A stretch of 60,030 bases of DNA from Escherichia coli (GTDB lineage Bacteria; Pseudomonadota; Gammaproteobacteria; Enterobacterales; Enterobacteriaceae), in NCBI RefSeq assembly GCF_003334405.1, contig NZ_QOWM01000020.1; one strand, given 5' to 3'. Made by a program: the position numbers and the translations under genes. Positions 24,700-24,880 of the stretch are shown here, piece by piece. The notes under the pieces were generated by a model. It saw only the letters and a list, made by a program, of their open reading frames with translations. It made no database searches and had not been told where the DNA came from. Every line of letters begins with the position of its first letter. Position 1 is the first letter of the stretch.

Positions 24700-24880
24700 T
24701 AGACATTTGTGCCTGATGCGACGCTTGACGCGTCTTATCAGGCCTACAACCGGTGCCGCATCCGGCAATTGGTGCACAATGCCTGATGCGATGCTTGACG
24801 CATCTTATCAGGCCTACAATGGGTACCGGATCGGTAGGCCGGATAAGGCGTTTACGCCGCATCCGGCAAGAATAGAGCAC
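24700..24880. repeat. BIME/REP cluster (several REP palindromes)
   Basis: Alternating copies of TGCCTGATGCGACGCTTGACGCGTCTTATCAGGCCTACA and GCCGGATGCGGC-type units between convergent ybcF and purK. Confidence 0.75.

Follow-up and report, generated by a model that had tools for sequence, protein, structure and literature searches.

The ybcF-purK gap and its REP units

In the window, the 60,030-nt stretch of Escherichia coli DNA that was analyzed, the convergent genes ybcF (+) and purK (-) are separated by a gap of 194 nt (24690-24883), in which REP units are clustered. The gene names are taken from the RefSeq annotation of the 100%-identical and the K-12 records. The 3' UTR of ybcF enters the cluster, and purK converges on ybcF. 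The features of the locus are the following.

23796-24689, + strand: ybcF, a 297-aa ORF, carbamate kinase of the allantoin cluster, stop codon TAG at 24687-24689 (ORF list, RefSeq annotation)
24690-24709: left flank, 20 nt, TCGTAGGCATTAGACATTTG, from the ybcF stop to the first REP, with a stray GTAGGC inside
24710-24747, + strand: Z2-type REP no. 1, TGCCTGATGCGACGCTTGACGCGTCTTATCAGGCCTAC (strict pattern, DNA hairpin)
24748-24767, - strand: truncated S linker AACCGGTG and 13-nt remnant of the 3' arm of an inverted Y, GCCGCATCCGGCA (24755-24767)
24768-24779: head-to-head linker, 12 nt, ATTGGTGCACAA, from the Y remnant to Z2-type REP no. 2
24780-24817, + strand: Z2-type REP no. 2, TGCCTGATGCGATGCTTGACGCATCTTATCAGGCCTAC (strict pattern, DNA hairpin)
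24818-24833: tail-to-tail S linker, 16 nt, AATGGGTACCGGATCG, with CCGGATC at 24826-24832
24834-24868, - strand: intact Y-type REP, TGCCGGATGCGGCGTAAACGCCTTATCCGGCCTAC (strict pattern, match to a published Y, hairpin)
24869-24883: right flank, 15 nt, from the Y REP to the purK stop codon
24884-25951, - strand: purK, a 355-aa ORF, N5-carboxyaminoimidazole ribonucleotide synthase, stop codon TAA at 24884-24886 (ORF list, RefSeq annotation)

The REP-bearing segment (24710-24868) thus reads Z2(+), an inverted Y with a 31-nt deletion, Z2(+), a 16-nt S linker and an intact inverted Y(-), so that three of its REPs are intact and a fourth survives as a remnant. Searched with strict patterns, the + strand yields Z2 exactly at 24711-24747 and 24781-24817, and the - strand yields Y at 24834-24867; for both patterns, 100 shuffles gave an expectation of zero. 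PMC11208160 quotes a Y query sequence with which the Y unit, its leading T included, agrees at 35/35 positions. The initial annotation had placed a bacterial interspersed mosaic element (BIME) of several REP units between ybcF and purK; these matches bear it out, and the alignment to the REP consensus that it had proposed as a check gives the same answer.

All three intact units match the Y or Z2 consensus and have the properties of the REP superfamily: they are imperfect palindromes of about 35-38 nt, they carry its tail (CTAC at 24744 and 24814, GTAG at 24834), and they are highly repeated. In E. coli genomes, the REP portion of an 801-nt query around the gap matches a median of 27 places each, which makes these units interspersed repeats and not sequences unique to the ybcF-purK locus. 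The predicted DNA hairpins have energies of -11.5, -10.3, and -12.2 kcal/mol for Z2 no. 1, Z2 no. 2, and Y, with z-scores against shuffled sequences of -5.4, -5.6, and -4.6, respectively. Similarly, RNA folding of the whole gap is more stable than that of shuffled sequences on both strands (z = -5.9 and -6.0), mainly by virtue of the three local REP hairpins. The two Z2 copies differ in the stem only by compensatory changes, from C/G in no. 1 to T/A in no. 2. Taken as repeats, the units form a direct repeat of 53 nt at a spacing of 70 nt, each copy of which is internally palindromic, followed by a third palindrome in the opposite orientation.

The initial annotation also described REP copies alternating in opposite orientation. 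This description holds for the purK-proximal pair, formed by a Z2 and an inverted Y, whereas the partner of the first Z2 is reduced to the 13-nt remnant. The segment between the two Z2 units is AACCGGTGCCGCATCCGGCAATTGGTGCACAA; the 3' arm of the intact inverted Y recurs in it as GCCGCATCCGGCA(A) (direct repeat family D3). Alignment with complete units from other strains indicates that the first unit measures 70 nt because 31 nt are missing from an otherwise normal Z2-S-Y-linker unit of 101 nt. The intact unit has two similar heptamers at a distance of exactly 31 nt, CCGGATC at 24826-24832 in the S linker and CCGCATC at 24857-24863 in the Y arm; of these, only one CCGCATC (24756-24762) is left in the first unit, and it marks the deletion junction. 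The 31 nt may have been lost by slippage or by a microhomology deletion between these two heptamers. The Y remnant alone forms no significant hairpin (z = -1.25). Of 5426 complete E. coli genomes, 1970 have the 72-nt sequence that spans the junction, each of them once.

The 801-nt query has an identity of 100% with E. coli strain 300709 and of 98.8% with K-12 strains. In K-12 MG1655, the gap corresponds to 551333-551526, with every base matching; the 10 differences between the query and K-12 are all in coding sequence, so that the gap has none against 10 in 607 nt of flanking coding sequence. The last 280 nt of ybcF hold eight of the 10 differences found over 24400-25200 (cluster at 24410-24575), and the 487 nt from 24576 to 25062, with the entire BIME inside, hold none. 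This mosaic suggests a recombination boundary near the 3' end of ybcF.

Mechanical ORF calling yields four reading frames of 40-95 aa across the REP cluster, at 24593-24880 (-), 24598-24777 (-), 24707-24949 (+), and 24753-24875 (+). None of them is annotated in RefSeq for K-12 or for the identical strain, and it is best to regard them as artefacts that the GC-rich palindromes produce; overlapping ORFs such as 24593-24880 (-) and 24707-24949 (+) should not be called genes. A promoter and terminator scan found no promoter-like site within the gap, and no terminator-like site (GC-rich hairpin followed by a T-run) on either strand of 24400-25200. In the feature table consulted for RefSeq NC_000913.3, no repeat_region features are listed.

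In addition, the Z2 units carry the exact natural target of IS621, ATCAGGCCTAC, at 24737-24747 and 24807-24817 (+). In the Y unit, 24834-24844 (-) reads ATCCGGCCTAC, which departs from this target at position 4 only, a mismatch reported as tolerated by the IS621 bridge-RNA recombinase. These targets are a curiosity and not a discovery; two exact natural sites for this recombinase are of practical use.

Class of the element and its alleles among strains

Two classes of BIME are distinguished: (i) BIME-1, which combines z1 and y units across a long L linker, often with an IHF site, and occurs as single copies, and (ii) BIME-2, which combines z2 and y units across a short S linker and occurs in tandem, in numbers of copies that depend on the strain (PMC3333891). 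The ybcF-purK element is a BIME-2, slightly decayed, and not a BIME-1, because it is built of Z2 and Y units with S and head-to-head linkers of 16 and 12 nt, and has neither a Z1 unit nor an IHF core. It contains two Z2 and one Y, plus the 13-nt Y remnant. Opposite REPs face each other across the S linker, with Z2(+) at 24780-24817 and Y(-) at 24834-24868 arranged tail-to-tail (CTAC...GTAG); in the first unit this opposition survives as a remnant only. The tandem copies vary by strain, with two units here, one of which has the 31-nt deletion, and the cluster lies wholly between the stop codons of the two convergent genes. The subtype matters insofar as it bears on predicted protein binding, which is of the gyrase type and not of the IHF type.

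The element is also already known, since it is listed in published K-12 REP/BIME tables. Its identification in these tables depends on the offset between versions of the MG1655 record, which we take to be 777 bp on the basis of the older purK coordinates. With this offset, the interval 550578-550734 becomes 551355-551511, that is, 24712-24868 of the window, the REP-bearing segment. This interval appears as 'BIMEs2 550578-550734', of 156 bp, in Table DS3 (PMC6379681); it was matched by coordinates with the inferred offset, and its length and position fit the gap exactly. A search by gene name gave no match in the Topo-seq supplement of the same study (PMC6379681), and the supplements of PMC3333891 and PMC12306157 hold nothing on the ybcF-purK locus.

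A second, different REP element lies in the convergent glxK-allE gap (window 16440-16545). It starts with a perfect 10-bp hairpin derived from the 5' arm of Y (ACTCATGCCG-GATG-CGGCATGAGT). Next come an L-like linker (...CTGAAAATCGCGCAAATTCTATATATTGCAG...) and, on the - strand, a Z1-type REP (GTAGGCCTGATAAGCGAAGCGCATCAGGCA). This element (about 16446-16542) matches the 'BIMEs1 542312-542408' entry of the published table. The IHF-type BIME (BIME-1) of the window is therefore this one, although its IHF core differs from WATCAANNNNTTR at two positions.

For the comparison among strains, 40 records were taken in even steps down a ranking of 5473 matches, and 11 loci were read; the unit counts of multi-unit alleles rest on sequence reading, gap lengths, and Tandem Repeats Finder (TRF). 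Gap length in the loci read ranges from 119 to 533 nt, with these alleles:

119 nt: chimeric, 2014C-3075
126 nt: one Z2 and one degenerate Y, 51489
About 134-138 nt: one Z2-Y unit, O157:H7
152 nt: no REP, 19KM1803 (same gap in S88)
194 nt: the allele of the window, K-12
204 nt: as the 194-nt allele, with another left flank, mip270_04
232 nt: two units, W4
432 nt: four units, FDAARGOS_144
532-533 nt: five units, EC958

In EC958, TRF reports a period of 100 with 5.1 copies and 96% matches. Among the sampled rows, the K-12-type allele accounts for about 36%, one unit for about 31%, five units for about 13%, and the REP-less gap for about 5%; the exact counts for the deletion junction (1970/5426) and for the REP-less gap (238/5426 complete E. 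coli genomes) agree with these estimates. The left flank also varies, and other strains have a different one, TGATGAGAGCATCCGGCAATCGG..., that resembles another Y remnant followed by a linker.

The REP-less gap of 152 nt (19KM1803; S88/ST95 strains) has a G-rich palindrome, CCCCTCGCCC...GGGTGAGGGG, possibly a 'boxC' repeat, which it resembles. Nucleotides 67-116 of this gap occur at one other chromosomal place, at 92-94% identity, in about 245 further genomes. In the 119-nt allele of 2014C-3075, the 5' arm of Z2, TGCCTGATGCGACGCTG, is joined to unrelated sequence, beyond which follows a Y-like REP whose tail is altered (GCAGGTCGGATAAGGCG...); the structure suggests that the BIME has been rearranged locally.

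Outgroup loci come from a single DNA-pattern scan of species-representative genomes. Escherichia whittamii has three units in a 316-nt gap, and Escherichia sp. E1V33 has one unit. In Klebsiella oxytoca, the convergent adjacency of ybcF and purK is kept, and the 260-nt gap has three different CTAC/GTAG-tailed palindromes, e.g., GGTAGCCCGGCTAAGGCGAAGCGCGCCGCAAGCCGGG. In E. albertii, other Klebsiella, and Raoultella, another gene adjoins purK and no E. coli-type REP was found there. The locus is thus shown to form an allelic series of 0, 1, 2, 3 (E. whittamii), 4, and 5 units, together with a decayed two-unit form. More generally, species-type REPs recur in the ybcF-purK gap, and the gap is a hotspot at which whole units are gained and lost, in line with descriptions of BIME-2; this turnover could proceed via unequal recombination, slippage, or a REP-associated tyrosine transposase. 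The rearrangement hotspot evoked in the initial annotation therefore finds support in the length of the gap, whose comparison across strains it had suggested and which proves markedly polymorphic. REP and BIME elements have been described since the 1980s-1990s, and the finding matters little beyond correct annotation; nevertheless, the gap is a convenient length marker of 119 to 533 bp that separates E. coli lineages.

Proposed function and alternative explanations

We consider it very probable that the locus is best read jointly as a BIME-2-type cluster in a convergent gap, with the identity and the allelic series described above and with a bidirectional role in 3' UTRs. From what is known of other REPs, transcripts would run into the cluster on both strands, those of the purEK operon on the - strand and those of the fdrA-ybcF operon on the + strand. 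Since stable hairpins are present and no terminator with a U-tract is, the REP hairpins are probably bidirectional 3'-UTR elements of the converging transcripts. REPs between convergent genes act as bidirectional elements, and REP325, a Y/Z2 array, is both a partially Rho-dependent terminator and an mRNA stabiliser (10.64898/2026.03.23.713779, a preprint). By analogy, the ybcF-purK hairpins may block 3'-to-5' exonucleases and so stabilise the upstream message, and a partial, in part Rho-dependent termination may reduce antisense read-through into the converging gene. In RNA-seq data, purK has a baseMean of 1170 and ybcF of 73 (10.64898/2026.03.23.713779), and therefore purK would supply most of the transcripts that reach the cluster; on these, the intact Y is the first hairpin. 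Genome-wide, genes with terminal REPs have no longer half-lives and the effects are context-dependent; fragments with 2-4 hairpins were insufficient for clear Rho dependence (10.64898/2026.03.23.713779). At the DNA level, the cluster would be a weak gyrase site at most, with two exact IS621 targets.

A more far-reaching version of this role is doubtful, namely that the allelic series is a heritable non-coding 'dial' that sets, by lineage, 3'-end formation, stability, and antisense read-through for the purEK and/or allantoin operons, and that the stop-proximal Y REP might also tune PurK translation.

The most serious competitor, which is possible even if we lean against it, holds that the cluster is a neutral or selfish passenger: the REP-associated transposase, together with recombination and slippage, would spread and reshuffle the REPs, and selection for a host function would play no part at this site. 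The variation among strains, from 0 to 5 units, and the presence of a decayed unit in 36% of genomes are as expected for such a passenger, as is the REP-less gap of 238 genomes, among them the successful ST95/S88 lineage; together, these REP-less genomes and the range of copy number argue against strong selection for a specific function. BIME-2 copy-number variation has also been linked to TnpA(REP) activity (PMC3333891), and K. oxytoca fills the same gap with different species-type GTAG/CTAC-tailed palindromes. However, REPs show a strong bias towards 3' ends and convergent gaps and correlate with expression (10.64898/2026.03.23.713779), and the stems of the Z2 copies differ by two changes, both compensatory. 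The lack of K-12 differences in the gap, against 10 in its flanks, points the same way, although its significance is only weak and a recombination boundary could account for it.

It is unlikely that the cluster acts mainly on the DNA itself, as a site of strong gyrase binding and cleavage or a topological insulator separating the two converging transcription units. BIME-2 as a class is enriched for gyrase cleavage sites, with a preference for Y units (PMC6379681), and the one intact Y of this cluster is placed where the positive supercoils of convergent transcription meet. In Topo-seq of K-12 W3110, however, the interval 550578-550734 had no cleavage site with Cfx (ciprofloxacin), one with Rif+Cfx, none with microcin B17, and none with oxolinic acid, compared with 6 to 35 at strong BIME-2 sites in Table DS3 (PMC6379681). 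The class property is thus weakly expressed here, if at all, and the cluster is a weak gyrase site at most in K-12; for the K-12 allele, a strong site is disfavoured. Gyrase binding, which the initial annotation had put forward, accordingly stands as a property of the class and receives next to no backing from these counts (0/1/0/0) for the interval itself.

It is equally improbable that the purK-proximal Y REP lowers PurK translation by stalling terminating ribosomes. According to the summary given in PMC12306157, stalling by stop-proximal REPs (Liang, Rudd and Deutscher, 2015) is limited to distances to the stop codon of <16 nt. The Y REP starts 15 nt after the purK stop if counted from the conserved T, or 16 nt if counted from the first paired base, which could bring it within reach but also puts it exactly on the threshold as summarised there. 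By the same summarised limit, the first Z2 is outside, at 20-21 nt after the ybcF stop, and the spacer of the one-unit O157:H7 allele is about 18 nt (by eye).

That the cluster is an IHF-binding BIME-1 (a RIP/RIB element) is highly unlikely. Its only favourable point is the general statement that BIMEs bind IHF, which the initial annotation had made; the gap has no Z1, its linkers are 16 and 12 nt instead of an L linker, and no WATCAANNNNTTR core occurs in it, and IHF sites belong to the L linker of BIME-1 (PMC3333891). IHF binding is thus not applicable here, and identity with BIME-1 is ruled out by composition.

Just as hard to sustain is a nucleoid-associated small RNA of the naRNA4 type. 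In an Rfam scan, naRNA4 (RF02564) was the sole family match, at 43.9 and 42.1 bits, as is expected because the model is itself a Y-linker-Z2 unit of a BIME-2; the 12-nt linker ATTGGTGCACAA is similar to the linker of that unit. All matches fall below the gathering score of 59.5 bits, each covers one hairpin with the other half deleted, and the sole Y-linker-Z2 junction of the gap has a deleted Y. Moreover, the nucleoid-compaction role of naRNA4 has been contradicted (10.64898/2026.03.23.713779).

Finally, a CRISPR-like or other direct-repeat array with unique spacers, which the initial annotation had named as the finding that would speak against a BIME, or a pair of intrinsic terminators, can be set aside as scarcely credible: despite the 53-nt direct repeat at 70-nt spacing, there are only two direct copies, these repeats are REP palindromes found at dozens of places per genome, the would-be spacers are related and repeated linkers and REP remnants, TRF finds no array in the window (because the two units differ by the 31-nt indel), and no hairpin is followed by a T-run, so that both candidates are refuted.

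Comparison with known systems

With bidirectional intrinsic terminators, the cluster shares GC-rich hairpins in a convergent gap that likely set 3' ends on both strands, but no U/T tract follows any of its REP stems. Any termination at the cluster would be partial or Rho-assisted, and the blocking of exonucleases would make up much of the effect. The naRNA4 family of Rfam (RF02564, CssrE) corresponds to one Y-l-Z2 unit of REP325, itself a BIME-2 unit; the Y and Z2 hairpins of the cluster are near-identical to the two halves of this model and the linker is similar, whereas no intact Y-l-Z2 exists here, the Y before the second Z2 being deleted.

BIME-1 elements (RIP/RIB; Y - L linker with IHF site - Z1) have in common with the ybcF-purK element the REP superfamily, the Y unit, and the tendency to lie at the ends of transcription units. 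They differ from it in that the ybcF-purK element has Z2 and not Z1, without an L linker or an IHF motif, and in that BIME-1 elements are single copies while the ybcF-purK element is tandemly repeated in other strains.

The closest relatives are the BIME-2 elements (Bachellier/Gilson), such as REP325 at yjdM-yjdN, eco-mqo, and tldD-yhdP. Compared with a typical BIME-2, the allele of the window is short and decayed, with one intact Z2/Y pair and another unit that has lost 31 nt of linker and Y, and in vivo gyrase cleavage in its interval is almost nil relative to strong BIME-2 sites. In all other respects compared, the likeness is close: the Z2/Y palindromes and the GTAG/CTAC tail are the same, the S linker is 16 nt long tail-to-tail and the head-to-head linker 12-13 nt, the element lies outside genes at their 3' ends, and the number of 100-bp units varies between strains.
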